A stretch of DNA of 30,356 bases from Candidatus Bathyarchaeota archaeon (lineage in GTDB: Archaea; Thermoproteota; Bathyarchaeia; Bathyarchaeales; Bathycorpusculaceae), in assembly GCA_963775895.1 (NCBI GenBank), contig CAVZKL010000021.1, positions 1-30,356 of the forward strand. The letters run 5' to 3'. The notes under the pieces are model-generated. The model saw only the letters and a program-made list of their open reading frames with translations. It did no database searches and was not told the origin of the DNA. The stretch's first letter is position 1. Each line of letters starts with the position of its first letter. Positions 10,803 through 30,229 of the stretch are shown here, in pieces. A program made the position numbers and the translations under genes.

Positions 10803-10918
10803 ACCTCATAACCGCTCACCCATCCAATGTTTCATAAGCTTGAAGACCGAACAACATCTTAATATCAACAAACTTCCACAAGTGATAACACCAAAAACGC
10901 ACTCAAGCGGATGAAAAA

Positions 10919-11818
10919 ATGGGATACCATGAACTCTTCGTTTCACCATCAAACATCTTCAGCGGACTCCAAACACCATACGCGAAAGCAGACTACATAA
11001 TCCTCGGAGTCCCCTTCGACGTCACGAGCACCTACCGAACGGGCGCAAGATTTGGACCCACAGCCATCCGACAAGCATCACTCAACATCGAAACCTACAG
11101 TTTCAGAACCGGAATCGACCTAGAAGACCTACGGCTCCACGACCTCGGCGACCTCCACGTCTCAACAGACACCACAAAAACCCTAGAAATGCTTCAAAAA
11201 GTAACAGAAGACATCACAAAAACCCACAAGACACCCGTAACCATCGGAGGAGAACACACCATAACCTACGGCATAACCAAAGGCCTAGGAAAAAAATCAC
11301 AACAAACCGCCATCGTCAGCTTCGACGCACACCTCGACCTAAGAAACGAATACTCAGGACTCAAAATGTCCCACACAACCTTCATGCGAAGAACCAACGA
11401 AGACGTGAAACCAGCCAAAATCATCGAAATAGGAACACGCGCAGTTTGCAAAGAAGAACTCGAATACGCAAAGCAAGCCGGCGTAGAGTTCTTCACAACA
11501 CACGACATCAGAAAAGAAGGCAGCCAAACCATAGCAAACAAGCTAAAACAAAAGCTCGCAAACTACCAGAACATCTACTTAACAGTCGACATGGACATCC
11601 TCGACCCAGCGTTCACACCAGCCGTTCAAAACCCCGAAGGAGACGGCCTAGAAATGCACCATCTCCTAGACATCCTGAGCACCGTCTGCGACAAACGCGT
11701 CATCGGGTTCGACGTTCTAGAAATCGCTCCCCAATACGACCAAGGAATCTCCGCAGTTCAAACCGCAAAAGTAATCTTCGAAATGCTCTGCAGCATCGAA
11801 AAATCAAGAAGAACCTAA
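10919..11818 (+). CDS. speB: Agmatinase (ureohydrolase family)
   Basis: GVPFD.TSTYR.GARFGP.AIR, GGEHT, FDAHLD, SHTT, DMDILDP. Confidence 0.93.
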   Translation: MGYHELFVSPSNIFSGLQTPYAKADYIILGVPFDVTSTYRTGARFGPTAIRQASLNIETYSFRTGIDLEDLRLHDLGDLHVSTDTTKTLEMLQKVTEDITKTHKTPVTIGGEHTITYGITKGLGKKSQQTAIVSFDAHLDLRNEYSGLKMSHTTFMRRTNEDVKPAKIIEIGTRAVCKEELEYAKQAGVEFFTTHDIRKEGSQTIANKLKQKLANYQNIYLTVDMDILDPAFTPAVQNPEGDGLEMHHLLDILSTVCDKRVIGFDVLEIAPQYDQGISAVQTAKVIFEMLCSIEKSRRT

Positions 11819-11907
11819 CAACAAAAGAACCCAGTTAACTCTTTAAGAACTAGGACAAGAGATTTTAGGAAAACCCAAACATAAAAGCACCCAGGTCCAG
11901 AACGGAG

Positions 11908-14600
11908 ATGGCGCAGAGACACTTAGAAGAGTTTTCAGCATTGAAACACAGCCCCCTAATGGAAAGGAAAGGGGAACCCACGGCCCTCATGACCACCCAC
12001 GGTACAACAGAGAAGAAAGAAAACAAACACTGCTTCCCCCCCGTTGCTCCAGAAAACCTACCATGTTCATACTTCGTGTCGGCCACTTACGACGGAAAAA
12101 CCCGCAAAGCCCTCATCAAACTCTACGAACCAATTTCCAGCCAGATCTATTTCTGGTACGACAACACCCAACACCAACCATACTGCCTGACAAACCTTTC
12201 CCCATACGAACTTGAAAAAATCAGCCGCGTCACTCATCACGAAGGCTTCGACCGTTTGGAAAACGTCGAAAAATTCGATCCATTGTCGAACAAAAAAGTA
12301 AACATCACAAAAATAATCACCAAGGACCCGCTAGCCATCGGCGGACGTCCATTCTGGATGCATCAGAGACATAATACCCGAAGACTTCCCAAAAGTCTCA
12401 GAAGTACCCGTGAACCCTGACGACATCAAAGTCTGGGAATCAACCATAAAATACTATCAATCCTACATCTACGATCAAGGACTACTTCCCGGAATGATCT
12501 ACGAAGTCAAGGAACTCCAAACTTGTGATCAAGAAACTCGAAGACGTTGAAAGAACGGTAAGCCAAATACGAGACACGTTCAAGGATGCAACACCCGAAG
12601 AGTTAGATTTCATCGAAGAATGGGCAAGACTACTCGAATATCCAGCCCCCAAATTCCGACGCGTCGCCCTCGACATCGAAGTTCTCGCACCAATTCCCAC
12701 CAGAGTGCCAGACCCGAGACAAGCAGCCTACCCCGTTATCTGCGTTTCACTCTGGAGCTCAGACAAACCCAAGAGAGTTCTTCTGCTGAAACGCAAAGGA
12801 ATCCGTGAAGGATCAGAACACTTACCCGCAGACGTGAAGCTCGAAGAATTCGACACGGAAGACGAGCTGATCAAAGCCGTTCTGGAAGAACTTTGGAATT
12901 ACCCCTTCGTGTTAACGTTCAACGGAGACGACTTCGACCTGAGGTACCTGTTCCATCGCTCGATGAACCTCGGAATCAGGACAAACGAGATCCCAATAGA
13001 AGTAGGCAAACGATCCTGCACGCTAAACTACGGAGTTCACATAGACCTCTACAAATTCTTCTTCAACCGTTCAATTCAGATCTACGCCTTCAACAACCGC
13101 TACAAAGACGTCACTCTGAACGACGTTGGCAAAGCCCTGATAGGACTAGAAAAAATCCCGTTAGCCAAGACCCTAGGCGATCTCACCTACAGTGAACTGG
13201 CGAAATACTGCCTCAGAGACTCTGAAATCACCTACAAACTGACGAGTTTCGAAGACGAACTCGTGATGAAGCTGATCCTAGTTCTGACGAGAATAAGCAC
13301 CATGCCCATGGAAGACGTCACAAGACAAGGAGTTTCGCGCTGGATACGCAACTTCCTGCAGCGCGAACATCGCAAAAGGAACATGCTTATCCCAAGCCCT
13401 AAGGAAATCTTGGCAACAAAAGGCAAAACAGCAACCAAAGCAATAATCAAGGGCAAAAAATACAAAGGCGCAATCGTCGTCGAACCCGTCCCAGGCGTAC
13501 ACTTCAACGTTGCCGTAATGGATTTTCCAAGCCTATACCCGTCGATAATAAAAGTGTGGAACCTCGGATATCAATCCATCCTCTGTTCACATCCAGAATG
13601 CCGGAACAACGTAATTCCAGACACGCCACACTGGGTTTGCACCAAGAAACGAGCCCTAGAAAGCCTATTGATAGGTTCCTTGAGAGATCTGCGCGTCCAA
13701 TGGTACAAGCCCAGATCCAAAGATAAATCGTTGAATACCGACCTGAGAAGCTGGTACAACATCACTCAGGGCGCTCTCAAAGTCATTCTGAACGCAAGCT
13801 ACGGAGTGTTCGGGGCTGAAACATTCGATCTGTACTGTCCCCCAGTGGCCGAGGCAACGGCGGCGATCGGCAGACACTCCATAACTCAGATACTTAACAA
13901 GGCAACACAGCTGAGCATTCAAGTGCTCTACGGCGACACGGACAGCATTTTCCTAAAGAACCCATCGAAACAGCAAATCGAGGAACTGGCGCACTGGACA
14001 GAACAGAAACTCAAGATGAGTTTGGACGTTGACAAGGTGTACAGATACGCCGTCTTCAGTTCGCGCAAGAAAAACTACCTCGGAGTCTTGGAAGATGGAA
14101 CGGTCGACGTTAAAGGACTAACGGGAAAGAAGAAGCACATACCGACGTTCATCAAGAAAGCCTTCGACAAGATGAAAGACCGACTCGCAAAAGTGAAAAC
14201 ACCCGCAGAGTTTGAGAAAGCTAAGGAAGACATCGTCGAAATCGTTCGTGATTGTTACATGAGATTGAAAAGGCGAGAATGGGAAAATATGAACGAGCTT
14301 GCGTTCAACGTTGTTCTGGGCGAGGAAATCGAGCACTACACGAAAACCACGCCGCAACACGTCAAAGCCGCGAAGATACTGCAAGAAAAAGGCGCGGAGT
14401 TGAGGGCGGGTGACCTGATAAGCTTCGTAAAGACATCGAAGCCTCCAAACGTCAAACCAGTTGAACTGGTAACAAAAAGTGAAGTCGACGTCGACAAGTA
14501 CATCGCCTATCTGCGCTCAACATTTGATCAAGTTCTGGACGCCCTAGGACTGGAATTTGACGAGATCATAGGCCTGACGAAACTAGAAAGATTCATGTGA
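11908..14600 (+). CDS. polB1: Family-B DNA polymerase, PolB1 type (two apparent frameshifts near 12352 and 12511)
   Basis: N-terminal YDGK..KALIKLY..YFWYD; bridging frame GCIRDIIP..VWESTIKYYQSYIYD.GLLPGM; ExoI DIE, FNGDDFD, YCLRD, DFPSLYPSII, KVILNASYG, YGDTDS, KKNY. Confidence 0.93.
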
Positions 14601-14607
14601 ACAACGC

Positions 14608-15165
14608 TCAACGCTCCGCAGCGACCCTCAGTCCGTGAGACTTCAAAGGTTCAATAATTCCTTTTCTACTAATGATTGAGAGCAGCGTGTAACCGAGTCC
14701 TGCGATCACGATGAGACTACTTATCGTTATGCTAACGATCATCGCTCCCCACGCAGGCAAAACATTTAGAACCTGGGGAGACAGTATTCCCGGAAGCACC
14801 CATAGATAACCCCCGACAATCACGCCTATGGGAAAAGCTCCCATTATACACGCAAAGAAGCGATGTCTTCTCAGTAGAAAAATGACGCTCGCCGCAATCA
14901 GATTCGCGATCGGCCCAAAAATAACGTCTTGCGGCGCCAAGAAATAATAAGCGTTCGTGAGGAAGCAACCGACAGTCACGCCACCCACTACCGGAATTCC
15001 AAGGAGCGCGGCCAAAGGAATAAGACAGTCTGCGAGACGCAGTTGGATTGGCCCGTAAATCGTTGGATTACCAATCGAAACCATTTGAATAATGTTCACT
15101 ATCACGTACAAAGCAGCAAAGACACTTGCTAAGACCAGATCTCTACTATCAAATCTCGTTTTCAA
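14608..15165 (-). CDS. queT: QueT-family transporter (queuosine/archaeosine precursor S-component)
   Basis: Hydrophobic; FAALYV, YGPIQLRLAD, GVTVGCFLTN, DVIFG: QueT pattern. Confidence 0.85.
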   Translation of the reverse strand: MKTRFDSRDLVLASVFAALYVIVNIIQMVSIGNPTIYGPIQLRLADCLIPLAALLGIPVVGGVTVGCFLTNAYYFLAPQDVIFGPIANLIAASVIFLLRRHRFFACIMGAFPIGVIVGGYLWVLPGILSPQVLNVLPAWGAMIVSITISSLIVIAGLGYTLLSIISRKGIIEPLKSHGLRVAAER

Positions 15166-15228
15166 TGCCTCCGCAACCCGGGATTTCTAGGGCGGATCGG
15201 GCGGAGGCCCCGCTCACCCGCCAAACAT
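15166..15228 (-). promoter_or_regulatory. Structured GC-rich 5' leader of queT (candidate riboswitch)
   Basis: TTTAATTA TATA-like box at 15256-15249, then a ~60-nt leader with competing stems GGCGG/CCGCC and GCCUCCGC/GCGGAGGC; the second covers GGAGG next to the start codon. Confidence 0.55.
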
Positions 15229-15281
15229 TTAGATCTGAATAGTCTGGCTAATTAAATGTTCCTGAAGAAGCATGCGCTCAG

Positions 15282-16186
15282 TCAACGCTTCACTTCAATA
15301 CTGATATGCTGGAAAACAAAAGCCAAAATCGTCGTCAAGGCAACCAGAAGCGAAGTCACCAAGACCGCCTGTCGCTCGGTTAATGGGTTTCGGTACGTGA
15401 TGAGCGTCAACAGACTCCTCCTGTGGTCCGAAGAAAGTTTATTCCCGTCGAAAGAAAGGGTTGCCTTCCTGCGATAAAAAAAGAAAGTGAGCAAAATCAA
15501 AGCCGAATTGAAAATGTAGGGCAGAAGAGAGATCGCCAAGATGAACTTCAAATCGGATATTATGGCAAACGAAGCCAACGTCGTTCCAATGGCAAACGAT
15601 CCTGTGTTGCCCACAAATATTCGCCCACGAAGATTCAGGGCAGCAAGCACGAGCCAAGTTATCAGAGGCGCGTAAAGCAGGTTGGCGTTTGAAACCGACA
15701 TTGCCATTAGCCCTATCAAGACTATTGCTGGACAAATTGTTTCCAACCCGTTTAGGCCGCCAAGCTGGTTAACAGTGTTGGTAAAAATCGTCACCAACAC
15801 AGGGATCATTATAAAGTAGTAATAGACGCCGAAATCAATCCTCGCCCATTAATGGAATAGTCATGTAAGTTCGCAGTCTCAATCCGTAGGCGAAGGAGCT
15901 GAGCGGAATTGCTGCAATCAAAGGTAGAAAGGCCTTGTAACGCCATTTCAAGTCAACCCAGTCATCGAGCATTCCCATAAAACCGCCGAACAGGATACAC
16001 ACGGCCAATATCAGAGGTGCTGAAGACGCCAGACTCAGAGGCAAAGATGTGCTGTCTGGTTCCTATGACGTTGAAAAAATAGAGAAGGAAGAGATACACG
16101 ACGCTGATCATGACGTAGAACACGCCTAACCCGTTAGAAATGAGAGGCTTGTTTGGCTTGTGCTGGTCGGGGACTTTGGGAAACAA
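15282..16186 (-). CDS. Glycosyltransferase family 4 (MraY/GPT/AglH-like polyprenyl-P HexNAc-1-P transferase), two apparent frameshifts
   Basis: Three ORF pieces join: PDQHKPNKP..G.G, GMLDDWVDL, NTVNQLGGLNGLE, IFVGNTGS; lies directly downstream of aglB. Confidence 0.85.
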
Positions 16187-16198
16187 TGCCCCGTCTCC

Positions 16199-18477
16199 TT
16201 AAGTGCTTGGGTAATCTTGGTTGTATTGGTCCCAGTTGATCTTGTAGAGGCATACTAAAGGCACGAGTCCACCATAATAGTTCTGTGAATCCGTCGATGA
16301 CAGGGTCTCGCCTGAGAAGAACTCTTCCTGGAAGTATGTGGGCTGTGTAACGTTTCCTGCGTCAGGATCCGTTACACCGTTGACTGTGCACCAACGGTCT
16401 TTGCCCCAACTCATCAACTTGTAAACCGTCGAGTTGAGACCAACGTCATTCCAGATCCCATTGGTTGTTGGTGAAGTTCCCGAAGGTTGTCTCGTTCTGC
16501 CAAGAAGAAGCTGGGTCGATGAGACTCTGATTGATGAATCTCTGTTGCGCGTTGCCCGAGATCTTTGCCATCCAAGTCCATTTTCCATTGTCACCGCCCG
16601 CCCAATCAACCCAGCTACCCTGATAGCTGAAAGTGTCAAAGACAAGTACGTATTTCGTGTATTTTGGATCGTACTGTTTGAGCATCTTGAGCGAATTACT
16701 CTCGTTTGCCATGAAAGCAAAACCAGTGTTCTCTATGGCCGTGTTGTTTATGGTCGTGTTGTCTGATAGCGTTGTTACGTTGCCTTCTACCGTTATCCAC
16801 AACCCGTAGTCCCACCAAGCAACAACGACAGTGCTCTGGTCATGCAGATTGGACAGGTAAGTCAACATGTCCAGCCACTCATTCACAGGCTTGCCGGGAA
16901 CTGCTGCAAGACTGCCTGAAGAGATTGTAATTGGCGCGTAAGCTGAACTGATGGCCTCAGGAACCCCACCGTACTGCGGCGAAAACGCCAAGTTGGTCAT
17001 CAAAACAATGAATATCAAGAAAACCGCCGCTCCGCTGAACTCTTTCCCTACGTGTTCCAGTCCGAACTTCTTCTTTACGGTCACTTTAGGCGGTTCTCTA
17101 ATGAGGGACACAAATGGCTTGAGCAGACCCACTATCCCGACACCTGCCAACAGAGCAAACGCTGGAGCCAGCAGATACAGGAGGCGCACCATCGAAGCAG
17201 CAAAATAGGCCGCTGTCAAACCAAAAAGCAACACGAAAAGATTCTTGGTCGTTGGGTTCCTTGCAACGAAGAACAGGCCAACTGCAAAAAAGAGTATGCC
17301 AATTCCGAGGTCGTAATATATTGAACCCCAAGAAGATATTCTGTGTTCCGCCACAGACTCCACGAGCGGGTTAGCACTTGCAAGGAACGGGTTCAGGACT
17401 CTAATAAACTTGCCAGCTATGCTGTTCGTTCGCCCCCGCTGCGAAAATAACAGTGAAGCTACCTACCAAACCGACCAAGATTCCAACAGCCAAGGCAAAC
17501 TTGGCTCTTGCCGAAGCTAAATTACGCAAAACTTCATTCAGACAAAGCAGAAGGAACACGCCTAGAACAGGTAACACTGCGTAGCTTGTAACGTACCGCG
17601 GCGCCAGAAATGGTGCTTGTATCGCCACTAGCAGACCAAGTCCAAACGTCAGGCTGTAGGCGAAGAGTACGCGTCGCGTATACCTTCGTAGCACGAGCAA
17701 AACGAAAACGAAGAGTACGGTCAGATCGAGCAGGTAGTAAGCTGCTCCCCATCCCATCACGGAATAGGCCAAGCAGGCTGCACAGGCCAGCGAGTATTTT
17801 ACTGATGAGCCGATAGATCTTTCTTCGTCAATTGCCCTCGGGAACATCAAAAAGAACAACAAGAAAGAGAACGTGGTCATTTCGGTCTCGAACCAGCCCA
17901 GATTGGTTCTTGATATGAATGACGGTTCTAATGCTAGAAAAATGGCGGCAAGAAAGCCAACGGGTTTCCCTCCGATTTCCTTTCCAATGAAATAGATGAT
18001 CAGCACGCACAACGTTCCTGTTATCACAGGGAGAAATGAACAGAAGGTCATGAAGTCAACGTTAACGCCAAAGAGAGAGAATAGGTCATAAAGAGATGCC
18101 GCGGTAAGCGGGATAGAAGGTAACGTTTCGGTAGCCATGTTGATTCCAGTTGGGAACCAAAAGTGTGTATCAATCCACTGTGTTGGCCAGTAAGGTGATA
18201 ACAGACCATTCTTAACCATGTAGCTGGCAACACTGAATTCAAAGTACGAGTCGAATTCAGACATCTGTAGCTGTCCTGTCCCTAATTGCTCCCAACGAAG
18301 CGGAAGAATTCGGACAGTGAAAGCGACGAAAAGTATGAGAGCTAATGTTGCGAAGGTCAGTATCGCGCTATGGTTGGTTTTGATTCGGAGTTTGCCCAAG
18401 CTTTTCAGACCGTTGGAAAAACGTTCTCTCGAAAAGACGTTGCTGGGCTTCACTTTGGCTTCATCTCTTTTTAACAC
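16199..18477 (-). CDS. aglB: Oligosaccharyltransferase catalytic subunit STT3/AglB, two apparent frameshifts
   Basis: SEFDSY, multiple TM helices, SVAEH, SMVRL, WWDYG, DNTT motifs across ORFs 17401-18477, 16446-17363 and 16199-16720. Confidence 0.93.
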
Positions 18478-18588
18478 ATTTCTTTTAGGTGTTTTATTTT
18501 CCTTGCGGTAGTCGTAAAGTTAAGATTGTTGACATGAGAGGCGCGGTTCATATATACCTTTCCAAAGTTCAGAATTGAGAAGATCAAA

Positions 18589-19750
18589 TCAGGTGACCGC
18601 GGGTTTGCGCTTGTACCCAAACCTTTCTGGATCATATAGCGGAAATGTTGACAGTCTGGCTTTGGCGATTCTTTCACGTATTCTTACGTTCAGAATAGAA
18701 CCTTCTTGAGCTTGAGACACCTCAACATATCCCATGCCTACACCCATTCTAAGAAGCGGTGAAAACGTGCCGCTTGTCAGTCGACCCACTGGCTGTCCAG
18801 CCGCGGAAAAAAGCTCAAATCCAGACCGAGGTATCCCTTGATCTATCATCTTAATTCCGACACGTTTGCGTTTAATCCCAGCATCTTTCTGTTTGAGCAA
18901 TGCTTCTTTTCCGATGAACCGCTCTTTCTGCCACTTGACAACAAAACCTAAGCCCGCCTCCAAAGGCGTTGTGCTTTCATCTATGTCGTTTCCGTAGAGG
19001 CATAGTCCCGCTTCCAGCCTAAGAGTATCTCTCGCCCCAAGACCGCAGGGTTCTATTCCCAAGTTTCTTCCGGCCTCAAGAACCGCGGCCCATAACTTCA
19101 GCGCATTTTCGGGTTTGACTCGTTGAGGCATTCCAGATGAAGACTTCAAAGCCATCCTCGCCCGTGTAACCCGTACGTGAAAGAAAAACATCCACGCCCG
19201 CAAGAGTGCAACGGCCGCACTTGAACCTTCCGATCTTGCTCAAATCTTCATTGGAGATTTGTTGGAGTGTTTTTTCAGCATTGGGGCCTTGAACCGCACA
19301 CATTGCCACAGTGTCCGAAACGTTTTCAATATTCACTTTGAAACCATGCGCGTTTCTTCTGAACCAATCCAAATCTTTTTCGCGGTTGCTCGCGTTAAAA
19401 ACCACCAAAAATCCTTCTTCCAGCCGGTAGACGACAAAGTCGTCGACTATTCCACCCCTTTCAGTGCACATAACCGAATATTGGGCACCAAGCGACGAAA
19501 GGATTGAAACATCGTTTGTTATAACAAAGTTCAAAAACCGTTCGGAATCTTCACCTTTTACCAGCATGCGACCCATGTGGCTTATATCAAATATGCCAAC
19601 ATTGTTGCGCACAGCCAGATGTTCCGGCGCGATATCTTTGTAGTAAAGAGGCATTTCGAAGCCTGAAAACAAGGTCAACTTTGCTGTCTTTGCGTGCACT
19701 CCGTACAACTGTGTTCTGCGAGGCTTCCCGCTCAAAGTCTTTTTCCCCAC
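18589..19750 (-). CDS. gcvT: Glycine cleavage system aminomethyltransferase T, one apparent frameshift near 19120
   Basis: FSGFEMPLYY, EHLAVR, FDISHMG, SRTGYTGEDGFE, GLGARDTLRLEAG..LYG. Confidence 0.93.
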
Positions 19751-19923
19751 GTGACAGCTACTTCAATCGGTTTCACATCTACATCAATCGGTACCAATGA
19801 AAGTTTCTTTCCGCAATTCGGGCATTTTCCGTCGACTTCATGCAGTATCTCATCTGGCGGTCTAAGTTCTGGGCCTTCATAAAGCACATGGCCACAACCT
19901 TGACACGCCACACGCTGAGGCAT
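19732..19923 (-). CDS. Small Zn-ribbon protein
   Basis: 63 aa; CQGCG...CPNCG; AGGAG RBS upstream; overlaps gcvT start. Confidence 0.8.
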   Translation of the reverse strand: MPQRVACQGCGHVLYEGPELRPPDEILHEVDGKCPNCGKKLSLVPIDVDVKPIEVAVTWGKRL

Positions 19924-20158
19924 AATAACATGTTCTCCTTGTTACGACAGGAACTAAATGGTCCTGACATATTTATCGGTTGCTGGGCAAGAGAATGCCA
20001 CAGTCTCCTCAAAAGCCGTAAATTGCCATGATGCGGCTTTCTTGAGCTTAGATTCGGAGATTTGGATTAACGTGCGCGCGCAAAGCAAAATCTTAAACCA
20101 GTACTTGATCCTAGATAAAATAAAACACGGACAACCGCCGAGTCCCCTGTGTCAAGCT

Positions 20159-22227
20159 ATGACCAAGTACACACTTATTATTACTGAAAAGCCTGATGCC
20201 GCGCTTAGAATTGCTACAGCACTCGATAAAAAAGAAAGCCCCAGAAAAGTGTATGACAATGGCGTGCCCTACTACATCGCCAGACGCAACAGAAAAATCG
20301 TTATCGTTCCGGCACTCGGACATTTGTACACGATTACTGGCGATCAACTGGGAAGAAGTTACCCGGTTTTCAACTTCAAGTGGGTGCCACGTTACCTCGT
20401 TGAGAGAAAGGCCGTTGGAATTCGAACCTGGCTTCACACTATCACAAAACTGGCAGAACAAGCAGATATTTTCATCGACGCATGCGATTACGACGTAGAA
20501 GGGTGCATCATCGGATACTGCATACTCAAATATGCGTGCAAGGGCAAAGAACTAGACATCGAGACGCATGAAATTTTCGACCTTGACAAAGCAGGACATT
20601 GAAAAAGCATATGAAAAACTATTGCCACACCTCGATTTCGGTCAAATAGAAGCTGGGCGCACTAGACACGAAGTCGATTGGCTCTACGGTATTAACCTCT
20701 CTCGGGCCTTGATGTTGGCAATAAAAAACGCAAGCGGAAACTACGCGACCCTCAGCACTGGAAGAGTTCAAGGTCCGACCCTCAAATTTCTGGTTGACAG
20801 GGAAAAAGCCATTGGCACATTCGTCCCAACCCCATATTGGAAAGTGAAAGCTCTGATCGAAATCCACGGGCAGATTTTTGAAGCAAAGTATGAAAAAGAA
20901 GTGATCGAAGGCCAGGAAGAAGCAGAAACTGTAGTAAGTGCGTGCATCAGCAAGAAAGGTGAGGTTAAAGAGATTGATGTTCGGAAGGTTTTGCAACCTC
21001 CACCGTGCCCTTTCGATCTAGGCACGCTTCAAAATGAAGCATACGGCCTGTTCAAATGCGCGCCACAGCGTACTCTGAGTGTCGCTCAACAGCTCTATCT
21101 GAACGCGCTGATCTCTTATCCGAGAACCGACAGTCAAAGACTTCCTGCCACAATAGGATATGAAGCGATACTTCAGAACTTGGGCAGGATTGAACCAGTA
21201 CACGAAACTGACGAAGGAACTTTTGGCCAAACAGACTCTGAGGCCAAAGGAAGGAAAGAAAAACGATCCAGCCCACCCAGCTATTTATCCAACTGGTAAT
21301 CCACCAGAGAAGACATTCGAGCTTACTGAAAAAAGAATCCTGGATCTGGTGATTCGCAGATTCTTGGCGGTTTTCGGCGAGCCAGCCGTCAAACAGAACG
21401 TATGGATCTCAATAACGACAGATGGACATCGTTTCTACTTGAGCGGAAGTCAAGTACTTAGTAGGGGGTGGATGCGTTTTTATGAACCATATGTCAGATT
21501 TCAAGATGTTATTCTGCCACCATTAGAAAAAGGGCAGGTTATCAATATCAAAAAAGTGTTTCTGGAAAGCCGGTTCACAGAGGCACCTCCAAGGTACAAT
21601 CCGAACAGTTTACTCCGAAAGATGGAGCAAACAGAAATCGGCACCAAAGCAACGAGAGCCAACATCATACAAACACTGCAAGACCGCGGCTACGTTCAGG
21701 GTGAGCACATGACGGTTACAACCTTAGGCTCAGAAGTGTGCCATATCCTAGAAGCTCATTGCCCCACCGTAGTATCGACCAGTTTGACGCGAGAACTTGA
21801 AAAAAGCATGTTAAAAATTCAGGAAAAGAAGGAAAGTAGAGACAAAGTTCTGGCAGAAGCCACTGGAATATTGAAGCCAGTCTTGGAAGCCCTCAAGCAA
21901 AACGAGAAGGCGATTGGACAACAGTTGGCTGGGGCTTTGAAAATCTCAAGACTTGAAGAAAGAACCGTAGGCGCCTGCCCAGTGTGCAAGTCAGGAAAAC
22001 TTGTAATAGACTACTCGAAAAAGACTAGAAAACGGTTCATTGGATGCACGAATTATTTCAAGGGACTCTGTAACACTTCGTTTCCAATCCCCCAGAAGGG
22101 CGCTGTGAAACCAAGCAGAAAGACATGCGTTCACTGTGGTTGGCCAACTATTGAAACTAGGATTGGAAGGCGACCTTGGATTCTATGCTTTAACACAGAC
22201 TGTCCTCCGAAGTCAAGGAGCAAGTGA
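20159..22227 (+). CDS. topA: Type IA DNA topoisomerase, two apparent frameshifts (near 20560 and 21190)
   Basis: Toprim ITEKP, GHL, ACDYDVEG; STGRVQGPTL; active-site ISYPRTDS; AHPAIYPT; IGTKATRA; C-terminal Zn ribbons. Confidence 0.95.
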
Positions 22228-22871: not shown

Positions 22872-22877
22872 TCCTAT

Positions 22878-24084: not shown

Positions 24085-24165
24085 GTTAAAGCACGTCAAC
24101 AGATATAAATTGCCAAACTATAATGTGTTTTGCGTTTGCACACTTCAAATTGCTAGGACTGCCGT

Positions 24166-24828
24166 ATGAAAGCAAGAATAGCCGTGGTAACCGTTTCGGG
24201 AAGAGCCTACTACATCATCGTCAACGAGCTTAAGAGAAAAAACATTCCTTTTCTAAGCTTGACCCCTCATGAATCTGTTCCGATAGGAATCAAAGTTGTC
24301 ATAACGACAGAAGCTGAGAAGAGATTTGTAAACCATGAGAGAGTCTTAACGTACAAGCCTGGTGTCGAACCTTCAGTCTTGGCAAATGAAGCTTTGCAGA
24401 TTGTTCAAGGAAAAGAGACCTTCGAGAAAGTTATCATAGGCGTAGACCCGGGTGAAGTGTTCGGTTTGGCAGTACTGGCGGGTGGGCGTGTTATGGAGAC
24501 AGACAACTGTTACAGTGTAAAAGATGCACTTAGCAGGATTGAATCAATGGTTCGAGATCTTGAAAGTGTGCCTGTGGCATCGATCTCCGTAAAGATTGGC
24601 AACGGAGTTCCTGAGTGCGAAGAGAAATTGTTCCGTGCACTCGACAAGTCACTGCCAAAGAGAGTTACGTTGGAAAGCGTGAGAGAGGAAGGAACAGATT
24701 CTCGTCTAGACGAAGCGAAACATAGAAGAGGGTTAAGGGATATAGTGTCGGCAATACAAATAGCTGGGAGAATTGGGCAAACGTACCGCAGGAGAAAAAC
24801 GGATGAATCGTACGGTCGAAAAGGATAA
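24166..24828 (+). CDS. Hypothetical protein with C-terminal RNase H-like (YqgF/RuvC-type) fold
   Basis: IIGVDPG..FGLAV, KIGNG, VREEGT, DIVSAIQIA acidic pattern. Confidence 0.65.
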   Translation: MKARIAVVTVSGRAYYIIVNELKRKNIPFLSLTPHESVPIGIKVVITTEAEKRFVNHERVLTYKPGVEPSVLANEALQIVQGKETFEKVIIGVDPGEVFGLAVLAGGRVMETDNCYSVKDALSRIESMVRDLESVPVASISVKIGNGVPECEEKLFRALDKSLPKRVTLESVREEGTDSRLDEAKHRRGLRDIVSAIQIAGRIGQTYRRRKTDESYGRKG

Positions 24829-26117
24829 GACTCTGGTGGTCGACGGACCGGCCTCTGTGACATTGTGTTCGGGGAAAGTGGAGGTCTTTGGATCTGAATT
24901 AGCATTAACAAGCAGAGTTGTTATTCGCGAGGGAAAAAGGCTTCCTTTCTTAGTTCAAGAGAAAGCCGTGCTTGACATCTCTGTTGGGGACAAAGCAGCT
25001 GCTGAAGAAGTTGACGGCAGTACGATTCCTTCCTCATGGACGGAATCGGCAGAACAGCTGCTTGAAATTCAGACCAAAACCGCGATCGGATTGGTTCTCG
25101 GAACGGTTGATTCTGGAAAATCGAGTTTTTGCACTTATCTAATCAACAGAATTCTTGCTGATAAACGGAAGGTTGCGGTTCTGGATGGCGATTTGGGCCA
25201 ATCAGATGTCGGGCCGCCTTCAACGATTGCTTATGCCATTGTGTCCAAACCACTCACTGATCTGTTCAATTTGCAAGCAAGAAGTGCTTGTTTCATTGGG
25301 GAAACATCACCTGGCAACGTTACAGAGGAGATGATCCGAGGCCTATCGTTGCTCAAGAAGGAGATCATCGTCAAAGACCTAGACTTTCTCATTGTAAACA
25401 CTGATGGATGGACTGAAGGCGAATGCGCTGTGAATTACAAACTTAGGCTGATCGAAGAACTTAGCCCCGACTTGATCTTCTCCATCCAACAGCAGGATGA
25501 GTTGGGACCAATCATTAACGGGCTTGGAAGATTCAGGATAATCTCGGTAGAGTCACCTTCTGCGATAAGGCAAAGAGATAGAGAAAAGCGAAAGAGCCTG
25601 CGAGAGCTTGGGTACAAGAAATATCTTCGGACACCGAGAGTTCAATCTCTCTCCTTGAGCTGGGTTAAGATCGAAGGGGACGAATCTTTCGGGCTGAGTA
25701 AAGGTCGCACCCTCACCAGGGAAGCAAGAAAAGTCAACGAGATGCTTGGAATGAAGCCTCTGCACGTTGCCGAGTTAACTGACAGGATCAACATAATCAT
25801 CGGCAAGAAACGCTGGATTAGTCAAGACAACATAAAAAAGGTGGAAGAACACACGAAGAAAAGAATTGTCGTGACAAGAAAGGGCGAAGAAGAAGGGCTT
25901 CTTGCTGGGAATGTATGACGCCAACAGAAAGTTTCTCGGCATTGGAGTGGTACAAGAGATTGATTATCTGAGGAAGGCAGTGAAGGTTCTCAGTCCGGTT
26001 TCGGATGAGGTCTCGATCTTGGTTTTGGGCAAGATCAAACTTGATAAGAACATGAAGGAGATTTCTCCGCCTGAGGAAAACAATGTGGATTTTGGGTCTT
26101 TCAATAAGCTTTTCTGA
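24803..26117 (+). CDS. Clp1/Grc3-like polynucleotide 5'-hydroxyl kinase, one apparent frameshift near 25907
   Basis: VDGPASV, P-loop GTVDSGKS, DGDLGQSDVGPP, NTDGW, RxRxxRxxLR; the C-terminal GLLxG..D...FLGIG continues in ORF 25902-26117. Confidence 0.88.
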
Positions 26118-26773
26118 ACAGGTTTCTTGACGGGCAAAGCTTATTCAATGGGCAAGAGTCACAAAGCGGGGATCTTGCTTTGCAGTATTTCCTGCCGTGA
26201 AGGATGAGAAGTACGTGGACTGCTAGGTAGTTTTGACGGCTGTACGATGATTGAAGAGTCTGGCGGACGGCTTCGTAATCAGCATTCGCAGATGCGAGGA
26301 ATAATCGTTTTGAGACCCTGTTGACGTGAGTGTCGACTGGCACCGTTGCTTTGTTAGCAGCAAACAGCAAGACGACGTCGGCGGTTTTCGGTCCAACGCC
26401 GTGGAGTTGCATCAGCTCGGTTCTTGCCTCTTCAAGAGGTTTTGACAGCACAGACTTCAAATCGCCACTATACTTTTCGAGAACTGTTTTTGAGACTTGT
26501 TTTATTACTTTGGCCTTGTTTCGGTACAGTCCCGCGACTTTCAAGCAGGCTTCTATCTGTCTTGTTTGGGCGTTGGCCAAGGTTTCGGCGTTTATTCGAA
26601 AATCGTTCGACAGTCTTTCGAAGGCCTTTCTGAGTGTTTCTGTCGTTTGTGTTTTGCGAGATGATCGTTAGGATGAGGGTTCTGAAGGGGTCAGCTGCAG
26701 ATTTCGTCCATCTAGGCATCTGGTATGTGCGTTTAAGCACTTTCAGGATTTCTTCAGCGTGTTTGTTAACCAT
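26101..26773 (-). CDS. nth: Endonuclease III (HhH-GPD, Fe-S), one apparent frameshift near 26628
   Basis: DPF..LI.TIISQNTND, GLYRNKA, L.GVGPKTA, VDTHV.RV..R, C-x6-C-x2-C-x5-C. Confidence 0.93.
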
Positions 26774-26845
26774 CAGATGGCTCCTATCTTGAAAGTGATA
26801 AATAGTGAAAACGTGAACCTATAAATAGCAAATGGAGAGAGCGCA

Positions 26846-27217
26846 GTGGAACGGGCAAGAGTCGTAAAGGACGAGATAGTCGAGCAGAACACGCGTTTTC
26901 TCGCCGTCTACGTTGAAGCGAAGAATTCGTGCTTGGTATTGTTGAGTGAGAAAGAAGATAAGATGGGTACGTTGGTTATTGCCGTTCCAAGACCGAAAGA
27001 TTTGCTGGGTCCTCCGTCTTCTTCCGTGCTTTTAGGCGACAAGAACTCTGCTACTGCGCGCATGTTCGCGGAGTATCTTGCGATGCGGAAGGAGAAGATC
27101 GCGTTGGTTTCGGTTTATCTTGAAACGATGGATGAAAGGCAGGCGCAATCGGCGTTCAAACGCTTGCTGGACAAGGTGACCTTTGAACAACCTCAGAAGG
27201 AGGGGTTGACCGCTTGA
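26846..27217 (+). CDS. Proteasome assembly chaperone PAC3/PAC4-like protein
   Basis: KMGTLVIAVP...SSVLLGD.....ARMFAEYLA.R..K..LVSV.L resembles the PAC3/PAC4 fold pattern (from memory). Confidence 0.6.
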   Translation: MERARVVKDEIVEQNTRFLAVYVEAKNSCLVLLSEKEDKMGTLVIAVPRPKDLLGPPSSSVLLGDKNSATARMFAEYLAMRKEKIALVSVYLETMDERQAQSAFKRLLDKVTFEQPQKEGLTA

Positions 27218-28635
27218 GTCTGAGAGAATTTCTCAAGCAGATGGAAAAGCAAAAAGAAGTACTCCATGTAGAAGAGAGCGTGTCACCTCGTTTTGACATT
27301 TCCTACGTGGTGAGATGTTTTGACAAGGATGGACCAATAATCTTGTTTGAAAACGTGAGAGGCTTCAAAACGAGAGTCGTTGCCAACGTTTCAGGAACAC
27401 GCGGCAGGATGTGCAGGGCACTCAACGTAAATTCGGAGGGGCTTTACAGAAAACTGGCCGATGCTTGGCGTTCACCCGTCAAAGCTAAGACTGTGACGAG
27501 CGCTGCGGTGAAGGAGCGTAAGGAGAAGGCAATAGATTTGACGAGGATACCGGTCTTGACGCATTTTGAGAAGGATGCAGGGCCCTACATCACTTCGGGT
27601 GTCGTGCATGCTAGAAGCGCTGACGGCGAGGTTGAAAACCTTTCTGTTCATCGCCTTCAGGTCTTGGATAAGCACCATATGGCCATCCGCTTGGTTCCAC
27701 GTCATCTTTTCAAGCTGTGGCGAACGGCAAAGGAGAGTGGAAAGGATTTGGATGTTGCGATTTCTATAGGCGTTCATCCAGCCGTATTGTTGGCTGCTGC
27801 TTCTCCTGTGCCTTTCGGTTTGAACGAATATGATGTTGCCAATGCTTTGATGAACGGTCGTTTGAAATTGGCTCAGTGTGAGAGTGTTGATGCGGCGGCT
27901 CCGGCTGAAGCGGAATTGGTTCTGGAAGGAAAGATTTCGGCGGCAGAAGTTGCGGAGGGACCGTTCGTTGATGTAACTGGAACTTATGACGTTCAGCGTG
28001 TGCAGCCTGTGGTCAACGTGGTGGGAGTTATGCATAGAGAGGATTATGTCTATCACGCTCTTCTATCGTCGGGGGCGGAGCATATGCTTCTGATGGGGTT
28101 GCCGCATGAGGTTTTGATTTGGGAAGCGGTCTCAAAGGTTGTGCCCAAGGTTTACGCCGTTAATCTTTCAAGAGGCGGAAGCGGATGGCTTCATGCGATC
28201 ATCTCCGTTGAGAAACAGTTAGAGGGTGACGGCAAGAACGCTCTGCTGGCGGCGTTTGGGGCACACCCAAGTCTGAAACACGCGGTGGTTGTCGATTCCG
28301 ATATTGACGTTTTCGACGTTTCAGAGGTTGAGTGGGCCATAGCAACGCGTTTTCAGGGGCGTGAAGATCTTGTGTTGATAAGTGATGCCCGTGGTTCGAC
28401 GCTGGATCCTTCAGCGGATCAGGAGAAAGTGTTGACTTCGAAAGTCGGTTTCGACGCCACAAGGCCTTTTTCGAAACCGAAAGAGAAGTTTGAGAGAGCG
28501 AGAATTCCAGGTAATGATGATCTTGAACGACTGGTTCGAAGGCTGGGCGGAAAATCACTTAAAGATCGGGTTGACGTAATAGCAAGAGGTTTGAAAACAG
28601 GAAGTAGGTTGGATTGGGTTGACGGAAGAAAGTAA
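27214..28635 (+). CDS. ubiD: UbiD-family prFMN decarboxylase (probably anhydromevalonate-phosphate decarboxylase of the archaeal mevalonate pathway)
   Basis: SLREFL, DAGPYITSG, SVHRL, EGPFVD.TG.YD, VVVDSDID, EWAIATR, GSTLDPS, K.G.DAT. Substrate assignment is inference. Confidence 0.9.
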   Translation: MSLREFLKQMEKQKEVLHVEESVSPRFDISYVVRCFDKDGPIILFENVRGFKTRVVANVSGTRGRMCRALNVNSEGLYRKLADAWRSPVKAKTVTSAAVKERKEKAIDLTRIPVLTHFEKDAGPYITSGVVHARSADGEVENLSVHRLQVLDKHHMAIRLVPRHLFKLWRTAKESGKDLDVAISIGVHPAVLLAAASPVPFGLNEYDVANALMNGRLKLAQCESVDAAAPAEAELVLEGKISAAEVAEGPFVDVTGTYDVQRVQPVVNVVGVMHREDYVYHALLSSGAEHMLLMGLPHEVLIWEAVSKVVPKVYAVNLSRGGSGWLHAIISVEKQLEGDGKNALLAAFGAHPSLKHAVVVDSDIDVFDVSEVEWAIATRFQGREDLVLISDARGSTLDPSADQEKVLTSKVGFDATRPFSKPKEKFERARIPGNDDLERLVRRLGGKSLKDRVDVIARGLKTGSRLDWVDGRK

Positions 28636-29107
28636 GAAGGAAAGTGAGTCTATTCTGAGAGTTGCGGATGTAATGGTCAGAGAAGTGATTACTATCGATG
28701 AGGAGTTGACGGTCAAGGAAGCTGCGGAAATAATGAACAAGTTTGAGATTGGATGCGTGATCGCTGTGAGAAGAAGCAAGACTATGGGGATTTTGACGGA
28801 GCGAGATCTGCTGAAAAGGGTTGTTGCTGAAGGAAGGGACGCTTCCAAGATTAAGGTTAAAGATGTTATGACGAGTCCTTTGGTCGTTGCCGAACCGGAC
28901 ATGGACTTGGGAGAGGCGGTGAAGTTGATGTTTCAGATGAAGATCAAGAAACTTCCGGTCGTTGATGGTAAGAAGCTCGTGGGGTTAGTGAGTCTGACTG
29001 ACATTGCTCGTTTCCAGCCTCAGATGATCGTGGTGTTGAAGCAGCTTGCGGCAAGTCAGGGTGCGCCGAAGAGTATGCAGAAAGTCATAGATCGCTACGT
29101 GGTATAG
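28619..29107 (+). CDS. CBS-pair protein
   Basis: VADVM, GILTERDLL, IKKLPVV..KLVGLVSLTDI. Confidence 0.92.
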   Translation: MTEESKKESESILRVADVMVREVITIDEELTVKEAAEIMNKFEIGCVIAVRRSKTMGILTERDLLKRVVAEGRDASKIKVKDVMTSPLVVAEPDMDLGEAVKLMFQMKIKKLPVVDGKKLVGLVSLTDIARFQPQMIVVLKQLAASQGAPKSMQKVIDRYVV

Positions 29108-29171
29108 GCCTCGTTGGGTTCACGGGCTTCGAAAGAAGTATAAGCGCCCTTTTTTTCATTCTATCACTGCA

Positions 29172-30229
29172 ATGAGAACGCTAGTCTTGGAAGTTGATCC
29201 GGAGCGGCCCGATTTAGAGAAGGTGCGCAGGGCTGCGGATTTGATTAGGAGAGGCGGTTTGGTTGCTTTTCCAACTGAAACGGTTTACGGGCTTGGGGCA
29301 GACGCTTTGAACGCTGAAGCGGTGTTGGCGGTTTTCGAAGCGAAGAAGCGTCCGCTCGATAATCCTCCGATCGTTCATGTGTGCAGTGTGAGGGATGTTT
29401 ACAGGTTGGCTGAAGAGGTTCCTGTGAAGGCTAGGATGTTGATGAAAGAGTTTTGGCCCGGTCCGCTGACTTTGATTTTGCGACGCTCGGACATCGTGCC
29501 TGACGTTACGGTGGCAGGCTTGGACACTATCGCCGTCAGGATGCCCAGGCACAAAGTTGCGTTGGCGCTGATCAGGGGGAGTCGTTGTCCTATTTCGGCT
29601 CCGAGCGCGAATCTTTCGGGGAGACCCAGTCCGACGATGGCGGGGCATGTGTTGGAGGATCTTGACGGCAGGATTGATGCCGTTCTGGATGCTGGGTCTA
29701 CGCGAATCGGGGTGGAGTCGACGGTTTTGGATTTGACTGTTGATCCGCCGCAGGTTCTGCGGCCCGGTGGGACGTCTTTTGAGTTGTTGAAGAGGAGGCT
29801 GGGGGAGGTGGAGCTGAACGTCTGCGGTGACGGCTGAGAAGGATTTGCCGTGTGAGACGGCGCGTTCGCCTGGGGTTAAGCATAGGCATTATGCTCCTAA
29901 GGCTGATGTTGTGCTGGTTGAGGGTGGGTTGTCGGCTGTGACTGCGAGGATCAGGGAGTTGGTGGAGTTTTATGGTCGCGTAGGGAAGCGTGTTGGTGTG
30001 CTCTGCACCGACGAGACCGTGGAGTGCTACAGTGCGGATGTGGTGAGGTCTGTTGGAAGCAGGAGCTGATTTGGCGGCGGTGGCGCACAACTTGTTCGGG
30101 CTTTTGAGGGAGTTTGACTCGGAGGGTGTGGACGTGATTGTTGCTGAAGCGTTGCCGATGGAGGGGTTGGGGTTGGCTGTTATGAACAGGCTTCGCAGGG
30201 CTGCGGGGTACAAGATCGTTAAAGCTTAG
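29172..30229 (+). CDS. sua5: Threonylcarbamoyl-AMP synthase Sua5 (TsaC + SUA5 domain), two apparent frameshifts (near 29822 and 30062)
   Basis: VAFPTETVYGLGA, K.RP.DNP.IVH, FWPGPLT, APSANLSG.PSPT, GVEST, SPG.KHRHYAP; final frame AHNLF..LR.FD...GLG.AVMNRLRRAA ends at TAG 30227-30229. Confidence 0.95.

Follow-up and report, generated by a model that had tools for sequence, protein, structure and literature searches.

In a 1.77-Mb Bathyarchaeia MAG (completeness 88.8%), the genome of a mesophilic archaeon from peat/wetland, we found that a dispersed repeat of about 85 nt stands at the head of kilobase-scale tracts in which the element's own strand is rich in A+C. The tracts are polar, independent of gene orientation and derived relative to congeners, they carry a one-sided transition spectrum, and the copies at their heads come as convergent pairs. 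From these observations we infer a causal part for the element, the kind of enzyme at work and a role of NucS. We propose, with middling confidence, that a DNA transaction which treats the two strands unequally has a polar boundary marked, and probably created, by the 85-nt element.

The window that we analysed is an entire contig of 30,356 nucleotides. It holds two elements, at 10694-10802 (+) and 30230-30337 (-), which form an inverted pair with 83-96% complementarity. Copy 1 has a conserved core at about 10720-10802, in which a near-palindrome (ATATTTGGATCCTAATAT), ATTGAAACCGAGGAGGGG, a T7 run within a 3-4 bp hairpin and GAATAAAC follow one another, and copy 2 adjoins the sua5 stop codon and ends 19 bases short of the contig end. 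Tract 1, with an A+C-rich + strand, extends over 10020-15720, starting about 0.7 kb 5' of copy 1 and fading by about +5 kb. It contains speB (arginase/agmatinase family, 10919-11818, +), co-oriented with copy 1, and the gene of a family-B DNA polymerase (polB, 12525-14600, +); their keto skews at the third codon position (p3), given in the coding sense for all window genes, are -0.79 for speB and -0.34 for polB, falling along the latter gene. Tract 2, with an A+C-rich - strand and a G+T-rich + strand, occupies 27700-30229, running inward from copy 2 and ending at +2600, with a weaker tail reaching back to about 26 kb. Three + strand genes anti-oriented to copy 2 lie there, namely ubiD (UbiD-family decarboxylase, 27214-28635), a CBS-domain protein gene (28619-29107) and sua5 (29172-30229), with p3 skews of +0.26, +0.41 and +0.51, respectively. 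Pfam placed speB, PolB, UbiD, CBS and Sua5 all on the + strand.

Our recount agreed with the base counts of an earlier note on this DNA: A+C makes up 47/60 at 11161-11220 and G+T 47/60 at 30121-30180, of the first 40 speB codons, 35 have A or C in third place, and G or T closes 43 of the final 54 sua5 codons ahead of the TAG at 30227-30229. Measured in 500-bp windows, the A/C bias that it described as fading 3' of copy 1 went from a keto skew of -0.376 at 11001 to about -0.1 by 15 kb, and the G/T bias said to build towards copy 2 was +0.13 at 26 kb and had grown to +0.308 at 29501.

Both window elements belong to a family with 36 genomic copies of 88-99% identity. The prediction of a sawtooth with its sign set by the element strand was borne out when the copies were aligned by orientation. 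Averaged over 35 of the 36 copies, the oriented keto skew at +100 to +2100 was -0.179 (z = -12.3 against random sites with an sd of 0.0145; 0 of 20,000 permutations as extreme), and in the upstream control at -500 to -2500 it was -0.003. The skew set in about 0.1-0.5 kb upstream of the element with a sharp step, held a plateau of about -0.24 from +300 to +1000, was half gone by about 1.7 kb and reached about 0 by +5 kb; on the element strand, A and C each gained about 0.05 and G and T each lost about 0.05. For comparison, the keto skew of the genome in 1-kb windows has an sd of 0.096 and exceeds |0.3| in 1.1% of windows. Skew was at or below -0.15 in 23 of 35 copies, above -0.10 in nine and above -0.05 in six, so that the oriented skew expected at other copies holds for the mean of the 35 and fails at those six. 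The copies sit in the first 15% or so of their own tracts, with the tract head 0-2.4 kb upstream of the element at no fixed offset.

The bias was strongest at p3, and co- and anti-oriented ORFs shared its strand sign genome-wide, in keeping with the earlier claim that it does not depend on gene orientation. Within 0-1.5 kb and in the element-strand sense, p3 skew was -0.45 in co-oriented ORFs (n=18) and -0.28 in anti-oriented ones (n=11). Among the 60 ORFs of the genome with the most A/C-rich p3, 22 fall in the 5 kb downstream of a copy, each of them co-oriented with it; this zone also holds 18 of the 40 with the most G/T-rich p3, and every one of the 18 is anti-oriented. In non-coding-like bases the skew was -0.13 on the downstream side and -0.21 on the upstream side. 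Changes at first and second codon positions in the tracts had the same sense (G>A 15/454 vs A>G 7/530; T>C 31/567 vs C>T 7/530), indicating that the tracts drive amino-acid change too, in core genes such as speB, PolB, Orc1/Cdc6 and ribosomal proteins.

Adjacent copies formed 10 convergent, 3 divergent and 4 same-sense pairs (P = 0.00025), and the convergent pairs lie 4-26 kb apart. Since the copies come as convergent pairs, the mirror image seen in the window is the rule. The expected signs, negative skew at the + copy and positive skew at the - copy, were found in about 7-8 of the 10 convergent pairs, most clearly on C4, C7, C10, C16, C18 and C21. Skew is about zero in the middle of convergent pairs and mostly within about 0.1 of zero on their outer flanks; the exceptions are +0.20 and +0.24 in the first kb past the - copies of C7 and C18, and -0.31 ahead of C14, where another copy lies.

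We compared the MAG under study (G000) with 10 congeners (G001, G004 and G005 among these), 11 genomes in all. The bias was far weaker in syntenic orthologues of five congeners. The p3 skew of speB is -0.79 here vs -0.07 to -0.16 in four congeners, and that of an anti-oriented gene at C18:115340-116203 is +0.77 here vs -0.08 to +0.23 in five; equal bias in orthologues, which would have told against the earlier note, was thus not seen at these two genes. Four congeners likewise have a ubiD p3 skew of about +0.2, and in G005 speB-polB is moderately skewed (p3 -0.47 to -0.28) with no element there. Related copies in the congeners lack downstream skew in the first 500 bp (10 copies from G001, mean -0.015; 12 from G005, mean -0.04).

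At p3 sites polarised with all outgroups in agreement, changes on the element strand were G>A 24/51 vs A>G 4/68 and T>C 17/31 vs C>T 2/89. The congener controls gave G>A 58/312, A>G 89/443, T>C 77/245 and C>T 81/535, the drop in reverse transitions here amounting to 6 events and the control branches differing in length. The element-strand spectrum fits repeated resynthesis of this strand on its complement. When polB, orf170 and speB were polarised in a three-taxon comparison with G005 and G001, the changes of the G000 lineage were G>A 37 vs A>G 24 and T>C 27 vs C>T 22; for polB alone they were evenly balanced, with G>A 21 vs A>G 21 and T>C 15 vs C>T 20. Weakly asymmetric overall and symmetric in polB, these changes speak against a purely G000-specific origin of the left tract; the symmetry of polB together with the skew of G005 at speB-polB implies that part of this tract predates the species.

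The earlier note had also expected skew peaks to coincide with the element, and they did so at 23 of 48 strong-skew segments; the other 25 are element-free, among them a 20-kb zone of orientation-independent skew at C15:24-44 kb. With 25/48 segments free of it, 6/35 copies unskewed, congener copies unskewed and G005 skewed without it, the element marks the tract head and is neither necessary nor sufficient; it may be a cause or may be co-located. No second repeat family anchors the element-free tracts, the only candidate found being a small 8-member 29-nt repeat. The motif GCGCGC was rejected as an anchor, being present in 141 of 634 intergenic gaps and within 600 nt upstream of just 10 of the 36 copies. 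Promoters of tRNA genes were likewise rejected as tract heads (35 tRNA genes, mean skews within 0.05), and both tRNA-adjacent tracts are integrase genes.

The repeat is the main dispersed family of the genome, the other families being the 29-nt one and one with 2 members, and nhmmer detected no diverged further copies. It is short, non-coding and dispersed in near-identical copies, as REP and MITE repeats are. Alignment of the 36 copies with their flanks revealed no terminal inverted repeats or target-site duplication, and Y1_Tnp was found in 0 of 11 genomes by a transposase search that covered Y1. No recurrent neighbour gene was found in -3 to +5 kb around the copies, and no nickase or barrier protein was found. 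Two copies were compared with congeners together with their flanks, and both lie at synteny breakpoints. The G- and T-runs of the element are kept at 88-99% identity though surrounding neutral sites are near saturation, and sub-families of the repeat have one end in common across species. Copies with the variant CAT>CAC were skewed in 12/12 cases vs 14/23 of the others (Fisher P about 0.012, hand-computed); C is likewise the base at this site in the nearest copies of G004 and G005, so the variant may be a sub-family marker.

Several known types of element were tried and rejected. A solitary CRISPR repeat-spacer unit was considered, as the element has a ATTGAAAC ending that we take to resemble the end of a CRISPR repeat, and a crude k-mer scan of the assembly revealed no array. 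No Rfam family reached the gathering score in the window, and fold energies of both strands fell within those of shuffles (z -0.45 to +1.05), which argues against a known structured RNA and against structured RNA or DNA in general. The GAAAC..GGGG of the element may resemble an ORB box; an archaeal origin with ORB boxes beside orc1/cdc6 was rejected, since 35 of the 36 copies have no Orc1/Cdc6 nearby, the sole such gene found (C18:25749-27020) lying 1.9 kb from one copy. A promoter of the downstream gene was rejected as well, because the first ORF is co-oriented in about half of the cases, distances vary, and copy 2 adjoins the 3' end of sua5.

The earlier note had read the element as a polar site where the opposite strand is repeatedly exposed or resynthesised. 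The spectrum agrees with a re-made strand, and the claim is weakened by an element that is neither necessary nor sufficient; deamination driven by heat is neither needed nor implied, as the host is mesophilic. In the mechanism that we favour, the element strand would again and again be removed and resynthesised on its complement, or, what amounts to the same, would be an obligate lagging strand, over 2-6 kb in the element's 5'->3' direction and 0.3-0.5 kb behind it. Changes borne by the complement would become fixed, giving G>A and T>C on the element strand, and changes on the element strand itself would be erased, suppressing A>G and C>T; each convergent pair would write two mirror-image gradients into the 4-26 kb that it encloses. 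As the underlying event, we would put first a polar site of replication-fork arrest, where the nascent strand is resected and the fork restarts; second, a nick that recurs on one strand, with 5'->3' excision and filling of the gap; and third, a one-way initiation site. The sign of the step at the copies would fit the element strand as lagging if leading strands are G/T-rich, as PMC6159521 states and the orc1 loci of G001 weakly indicate, but the skew fades within 5 kb and does not persist to the next origin.

A profile search for NucS_C gave no match in G000 and matches in 9 of 10 congeners, and tblastn with the NucS ORFs of G001 and G005 found no match in G000. Loss of nucS in G000 is not proven by this, because the MAG is just 88.8% complete. 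MutS and MutL were found in none of the 11 genomes, which argues against nick-directed repair in place of NucS, and EndoV and UDG genes are both present, so that loss of either was rejected. According to one study (PMC6159521), transitions rise about 50-fold when EndoMS is lost, G and T accumulate on leading strands, and asymmetry without EndoMS is modest over whole replichores, e.g. 185 C>T vs 105 G>A. This gain on leading strands fits an element strand that is lagging or re-made. Dominance of transitions and a difference between nascent strands are common to both cases, with NucS not found here; unlike the asymmetry given in PMC6159521, the one seen here is local, polar and near saturation. 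An apparent lack of NucS/EndoMS mismatch repair would let asymmetry accumulate fast, and the related copies of the congeners may be unmarked because NucS is present there.

An alternative that we consider rather unlikely is that the tracts have another cause (fork-pause or fragile sites, exposed single strand) and that a mobile repeat inserts near their heads, its orientation set by the exposed strand, as in single-strand transposons. It would account for the half or so of strong tracts that have no element, for the variable offset between head and copy, and for the repeat family without tracts in congeners. Near-identical copies in saturated flanks are expected of recent insertions, and the skewed speB-polB of G005 points the same way. 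At C2:13,050 a divergent nrdD intergenic region, skewed in G005 too, forms the head of the tract, and the element lies 1 kb inside the tract. Against this, the copies cluster at the beginning of tracts and are not scattered, no transposase partner was found among Y1_Tnp in the 11 genomes, and neither a target duplication nor a terminal inverted repeat is seen in the copy alignment. At loci syntenic in five congeners, the strongest tracts occur in G000 alone, but those congeners have NucS, and a silent pre-existing site is possible there.

We regard as distinctly unlikely the reading that convergent pairs are cis-ends of a dedicated system bounding 4-26 kb cassettes, which would be copied inward from both ends by nick- or end-primed resynthesis. 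If it were true, the arrangement would resemble a linear replicon that is bounded by inverted terminal repeats and sits within the chromosome, and the genome would have many site-specific polar initiation or arrest sites with local hypermutation of adjacent genes.

Transcription is a highly improbable cause. The element would be a portable strong promoter and the tract transcription-associated mutation, fading as RNA polymerase terminates. Highly expressed genes away from elements are A/C-rich at p3 (thermosome -0.30 and -0.23; EF-1alpha -0.37), a ribosomal-protein operon lies 0.6-8 kb downstream of the copy at C27:39477, and the palindrome, read by eye, has TATA-like halves. However, the sign is wrong: an exposed non-template strand gains G+T, and the would-be non-template strand here loses C>T and A>G. 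Anti-oriented downstream genes are about as frequent as co-oriented ones, the skew begins 0.3-0.5 kb upstream of the element, the T7 run on the element strand is presumably an archaeal terminator signal, and the tRNA genes as a class have no tract. Selection for C/A-ending codons in expressed genes, added to an ancestral skew of regional or replication origin and to an element that is close by through coincidence, is largely refuted and hardly tenable: the genome-wide p3 mean of -0.08 (coding sense; lower in expressed genes), the ubiD skew shared by four congeners, a polB about equally skewed in G005 and a weak - to + shift across both orc1 loci of G001 speak for it, but it cannot give G/T-rich p3 in anti-oriented genes and leaves skewed non-coding DNA, the permutation result and the excess of convergent pairs unexplained.

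The polar boundary that we favour has parallels in known systems. Tus-Ter of E. coli and RTS1 of fission yeast are short orientation-dependent cis sites in opposed groups with one-sided flank effects, and at RTS1 the DNA behind the site is resected over kb distances and synthesis past it is error-prone. Opposed orientation defines a zone here as it does at Ter; Ter, however, traps forks in one large terminus, whereas the pairs here enclose short segments of 4-26 kb. We know of no polar fork barriers in archaea. As reported in PMC3020120, termination in Sulfolobus occurs by random fork collision. The strand-displacement gradient of vertebrate mtDNA likewise makes one strand A+C-rich and the other G+T-rich through transitions. 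That gradient tracks how long or how often a strand is unpaired or copied. It is a single gradient per small genome with two origins, unlike the at least 23 repeat-anchored chromosomal tracts of 2-6 kb described here, in which reverse transitions are also suppressed. The Pol I mutation footprint at the ColE1 origin reportedly decays over a few kb. In that system (PMC3167613), error-prone Pol I leaves a strand-specific footprint anchored at the start site, as here, but in a laboratory plasmid with an engineered polymerase, a single site and a known polymerase hand-over. REP/BIME and MITE-type repeats are also short, lie between genes, have no ORF and exist in tens of near-identical copies that contain a palindromic module; the repeat described here differs from them in that we saw no terminal inverted repeats or target duplications in its alignment and found no Y1 transposase.

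To our knowledge, no dispersed repeat is known to head a compositional gradient, and our literature search found no description of a repeat-anchored local skew or an archaeal polar barrier. Strand-composition skew is the main sequence-only read-out of chromosome copying, and in prokaryotes it normally takes the form of a few replichore-sized steps; here, in a class of archaea that is uncultured, a single small repeat is linked to dozens of sharp, oriented, kb-scale sawteeth. They would be the footprint of a one-directional copying or repair process and appear new to the literature. Should the element prove to be a polar barrier or a site of nicking, no cis-element of this kind would have been known from archaea before, and it would give a handle on fork arrest and restart there; if a missing NucS reveals the footprint, mismatch-repair-free genomes could serve as natural maps of strand asymmetry.

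The skewed sequence was recovered at 90-99% identity in contigs of four independent runs and is therefore not an assembly artefact. Read by eye, the sua5 frame has at least two breaks (the ORF of the N-terminal domain is 29172-29837, and the remainder lies in shifted frames), and several further window genes are split. Contigs from other runs differ by 1-nt indels at 16456, 17432 and 28563, so the split frames are likely due in part to assembly indel error rather than decay. Strain divergence was not raised in the left tract in the single run covering it, and in contig pieces of three runs it was 4.4-5.0% in 27.7-30.2 kb vs about 1-2.5% in the middle of the window.

The window spans all of contig C21, and in it the copies of the ~85-nt element at 10694-10802 (+) and 30230-30337 (-) form an inverted pair. 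Profiling keto skew, (G+T-A-C)/N, in 500-bp windows showed that it was -0.376 at 11 kb, weakened to about -0.1 by 15 kb, stayed near 0 across 16-25 kb and then rose to +0.308 at 29.5 kb. In 1-kb windows over the genome (G000; 1.77 Mb in 28 contigs, 47.7% G+C, 88.8% completeness, 3.5% contamination), the standard deviation of the skew is 0.096 and 1.1% lie beyond |0.3|. Our recount agrees with the counts of the earlier note, namely 47/60 A+C at 11161-11220, 35 of the first 40 speB codons ending in A or C, 47/60 G+T at 30121-30180, and 43 of the last 54 sua5 codons ending in G or T. Since the speB, PolB, UbiD, CBS and Sua5 genes all lie on the + strand, the two tracts (the kilobase stretches of strand-biased composition headed by the element) are opposite in sign within genes of the same orientation, as had been claimed for speB and sua5. 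The skewed stretch was also found in metagenomes from peat, wetland and freshwater sediment (11 studies).

A k-mer screen showed that this element far outnumbers any other dispersed repeat family of G000, and blastn and nhmmer gave the same count of exactly 36 copies. We superposed the flanks of 35 copies by element orientation and found that the element strand, read in the element's 5'->3' direction, is A+C-rich downstream, with A and C each up by about 0.05 and G and T each down by about 0.05. The 500-bp bins read -0.215, -0.215, -0.164, -0.127, -0.113, -0.097, -0.058 and -0.048, then about 0. At 100-bp resolution, the skew climbs between -500 and -100, is -0.257 in the 100 bp just 5' of the element, forms a plateau of about -0.24 at +300 to +1000, has roughly halved at +1.7 kb, and vanishes by +5 kb. 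The mean oriented skew was -0.179, compared to a mean of 0 and a standard deviation of 0.0145 for random sites and orientations (z = -12.3); the alignment to every copy proposed in the earlier note thus yielded a sawtooth whose sign follows the element strand. Taken singly, 23 of the 35 copies carry an oriented skew of -0.15 or below, but six lie above -0.05 and have no tract.

Adjacent copies on multi-copy contigs comprise 10 convergent (4.3-26 kb apart), 3 divergent (49-113 kb) and 4 same-sense pairs, with P(>=10 convergent) = 0.00025 under random orientation. About 7-8 of the 10 convergent pairs, most clearly those on contigs C4, C7, C10, C16, C18 and C21, run from negative skew at the + copy through about 0 in the middle to positive skew at the - copy, indicating that the mirror image described for the window is a general rule of G000. 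Outside the pairs, the skew mostly stays within about 0.1 of zero, except for +0.20 (C7) and +0.24 (C18) in the first kb past the - copies, and -0.31 ahead of C14, where a further copy is present. Core genes lie between convergent copies, including a ribosomal-protein operon, the only Orc1/Cdc6 gene found, two PolB paralogues and nrdD. The Orc1/Cdc6 gene (C18:25749-27020) sits anti-oriented inside the tract of the copy C18:28918-28983, with a third-codon-position keto skew (p3) of +0.32; most congeners have two such genes.

These facts require that, no more than about 0.5 kb from the element, some strand-asymmetric process undergoes a sharp, oriented break, with an effect that dies away over 2-6 kb. 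Our preferred reading, held with about even confidence, is that the element is, or lies exactly at, a polar DNA-transaction site. For the 2-6 kb length scale, a tract-length-limited process, for instance an arrested fork that is resected and restarted or excision that begins at a strand-specific nick, fits better than a pure fork-direction change. The latter would presumably call for a new initiation every few kb. That polar DNA transactions leave strand skew is nothing new; in the literature we found no account of repeat-anchored, convergent kilobase sawteeth by the dozen in a prokaryotic chromosome, and we know of no polar barrier or site-specific nick system in archaea.

To compare host genes, we used congener genomes, the Candidatus Bathyarchaeota/Bathyarchaeia MAGs that carry the element pattern. 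The block of speB, orf170 and polB through ubiD, CBS and sua5 is syntenic in congener G001, and its speB-to-GCV_T part in G005. The p3 of speB is -0.79 in G000 versus -0.07 to -0.16 in G001, G002, G008 and G009, that of sua5 is +0.51 versus +0.13 to +0.36 in four congeners and -0.20 in G005, and that of CBS is +0.41 versus -0.17 to +0.27. In the strongest tract, the anti-oriented gene C18:115340-116203 has +0.77 versus -0.08 to +0.23 in five congeners. According to the earlier note, its claim would be refuted by equal bias in orthologues lacking the element; for speB the bias is far weaker in the four congeners. In G005, speB (-0.47/-0.37) and polB (-0.31) are skewed with no element nearby. 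This, the symmetric polB changes on the G000 lineage, and a ubiD p3 of about +0.2 in four congeners count against a purely G000-specific origin. A weak pattern across the region therefore came first, and what is new is the sharp element-adjacent peaks.

For the substitution spectrum of five genes, we kept to sites identical in all 4-5 congener orthologues and wrote changes on the element strand. Third-position transitions were G>A 24/51, A>G 4/68, T>C 17/31 and C>T 2/89, with transversions G>C 5/51 and C>G 1/89; congener controls (each versus the others) gave 58/312, 89/443, 77/245, 81/535, 16/312 and 26/535, respectively. Forward transitions are thus about 2-2.5-fold higher and reverse transitions 3- to 7-fold lower than in controls, the latter resting on 6 events and on control branches of different length. 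Within these limits, the drop in reverse transitions is beyond what a higher mutation rate alone predicts. The drop is predicted by repeated re-making of the element strand from its complement, and also by a fixed replication direction in which the two nascent strands are made with unequal fidelity.

The element could instead be a passenger that targets such polar sites, which we consider unlikely, though less so than the other alternatives. Several observations weigh against simple causation by the element, the six copies with no tract among them. Skew peaks coincide with the element only in part: among 48 segments with |skew| >= 0.22 per kb, a correctly oriented element accompanies 22, 25 are element-free and 1 is a mirror neighbour. 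Tracts begin between 0 and 2.4 kb upstream of their copy, and copies retain their own G- and T-runs although surrounding neutral sites are near saturation. Element-free strong segments include two phage-type integrase genes beside tRNA genes or fragments (C23:15689-16774 and C18:103696-104709); the coding strand of such genes is extremely A/C-rich (p3 -0.65 to -0.70), and the integrase of NucS-bearing G001 (L015:1050-2250) is skewed likewise, so integrated elements carry skew of this kind. Another such segment is a divergent nrdD locus, where the intergenic region C2:12700-13100, between nrdD and a Pfam-unmatched gene, has strong mirror skew on both sides (+0.43/-0.42), which is conserved in G005 (L041:3900-4100) with no element at the switch point. 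In C15:24-44 kb, a 20-kb element-free zone with housekeeping genes including HMG-CoA reductase and the CCA-adding enzyme, the + strand is G/T-rich whatever the gene orientation, with a sharp right edge at about 44 kb. Windows above an absolute skew of 0.25 make up 0.5% and 2% in an unbiased 800-kb sample of G001 versus 2.8% in G000; the sample still contains 2-3 orientation-independent zones.

As for the element itself, alignment of copies gives the order near-palindrome, ATTGAAACCGAGGAGGGG, short hairpin, GAATAAAC. Most copies have T7 as the hairpin loop and the others A6 (7-8/36; e.g., C18:28918-28983, C22:54140-54197 and C13:14137-14191), the latter being an inverted hairpin of the kind yielded by template switching in a quasi-palindrome; each form occurs with and without tracts. 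The 5' half alone is common to congeners (matches in 9/10), where it heads other repeat sub-families. The element matched no Rfam family and folded no better than shuffles, no recurrent gene was found beside copies, and no Y1 transposase was found in the genus. Synteny breaks at both copies whose flanks were compared with congeners: neither in G001 nor in G005 does speB adjoin the sequence to the left of copy 1, and one side of C16:10849-10930 matches G005 contig C1, the other C20.

In the element-strand sense, p3 at 0-1.5 kb downstream is -0.45 in co-oriented ORFs (n=18) and -0.28 in anti-oriented ORFs (n=11); the corresponding values are -0.30 and -0.26 at 1.5-3 kb and about -0.05 and +0.09 far from copies. 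Among 1386 ORFs, 18 of the 40 most G/T-rich at p3 lie within 5 kb downstream of a copy, all 18 anti-oriented, as do 22 of the 60 most A/C-rich, all 22 co-oriented. Non-coding-like bases are skewed as well (-0.13 downstream and -0.21 in the 400 nt upstream of copies), so the independence from gene orientation claimed at the outset stands, and the tract skew is not due to codon choice. In expressed genes remote from elements, namely those for thermosomes, EF-1alpha and EF-2, p3 lies between -0.23 and -0.37, which we read as an ordinary preference for C/A-ending codons that reinforces the tract in co-oriented genes and works against it in anti-oriented ones. That transcription makes the tracts is improbable to us; selection or chance is very hard to credit, with 0 of 20,000 permutations reaching -0.179.

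We also searched for repair genes. A NucS_C profile was positive in 9/10 congeners and in no place in G000, and tblastn of G000 with the NucS ORFs of G001 (L079:5930-6754) and G005 (L080:5599-6411) gave no match. The genes flanking nucS in G005 are both assembled mid-contig in G000; in G005 some 2 kb separate nucS from nrdD, and it is the G000 orthologue of this nrdD that abuts the C16 copy. These results are suggestive of nucS loss from this 88.8% complete genome. MutS and MutL were not found in any of the 11 genomes, and G000 may be without any known mismatch repair; EndoV and UDG are present. According to PMC6159521, EndoMS cleaves G/T, G/G and T/T mismatches, transitions become about 50-fold more frequent when it is lost, and C>T and A>G arise preferentially on the leading strand; by this convention, the element strand within a tract behaves like a strand that is lagging or re-made. 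A UDG-family uracil-DNA glycosylase gene (9013-9618) lies 1.1 kb upstream of copy 1, and the UDG gene of congener G004 is likewise about 0.9 kb from a full-length copy (C176).

Numerous core genes are broken up into 2-3 neighbouring ORFs, including STT3/AglB, GCV_T, topoisomerase (three pieces), sua5 and nrdD paralogues (window 16446-22227 and 29172-30229; C2:10492-12695; C16:8549-10635). Contigs from other runs have 1-nt indels at 16456, 17432 and 28563 of the window, suggesting assembly indel errors over pseudogenes. The sole other repeat family in the k-mer screen is small, with 8 members and a longest of 29 nt (C9:77853-77881 and seven other places), and was not seen as an array in a crude scan. 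GCGCGC occurs at 1.30 per kb outside long ORFs versus 0.45 per kb genome-wide (about 3x) and in 141 of 634 intergenic gaps of G000, and may be a general intergenic signal of the genus.
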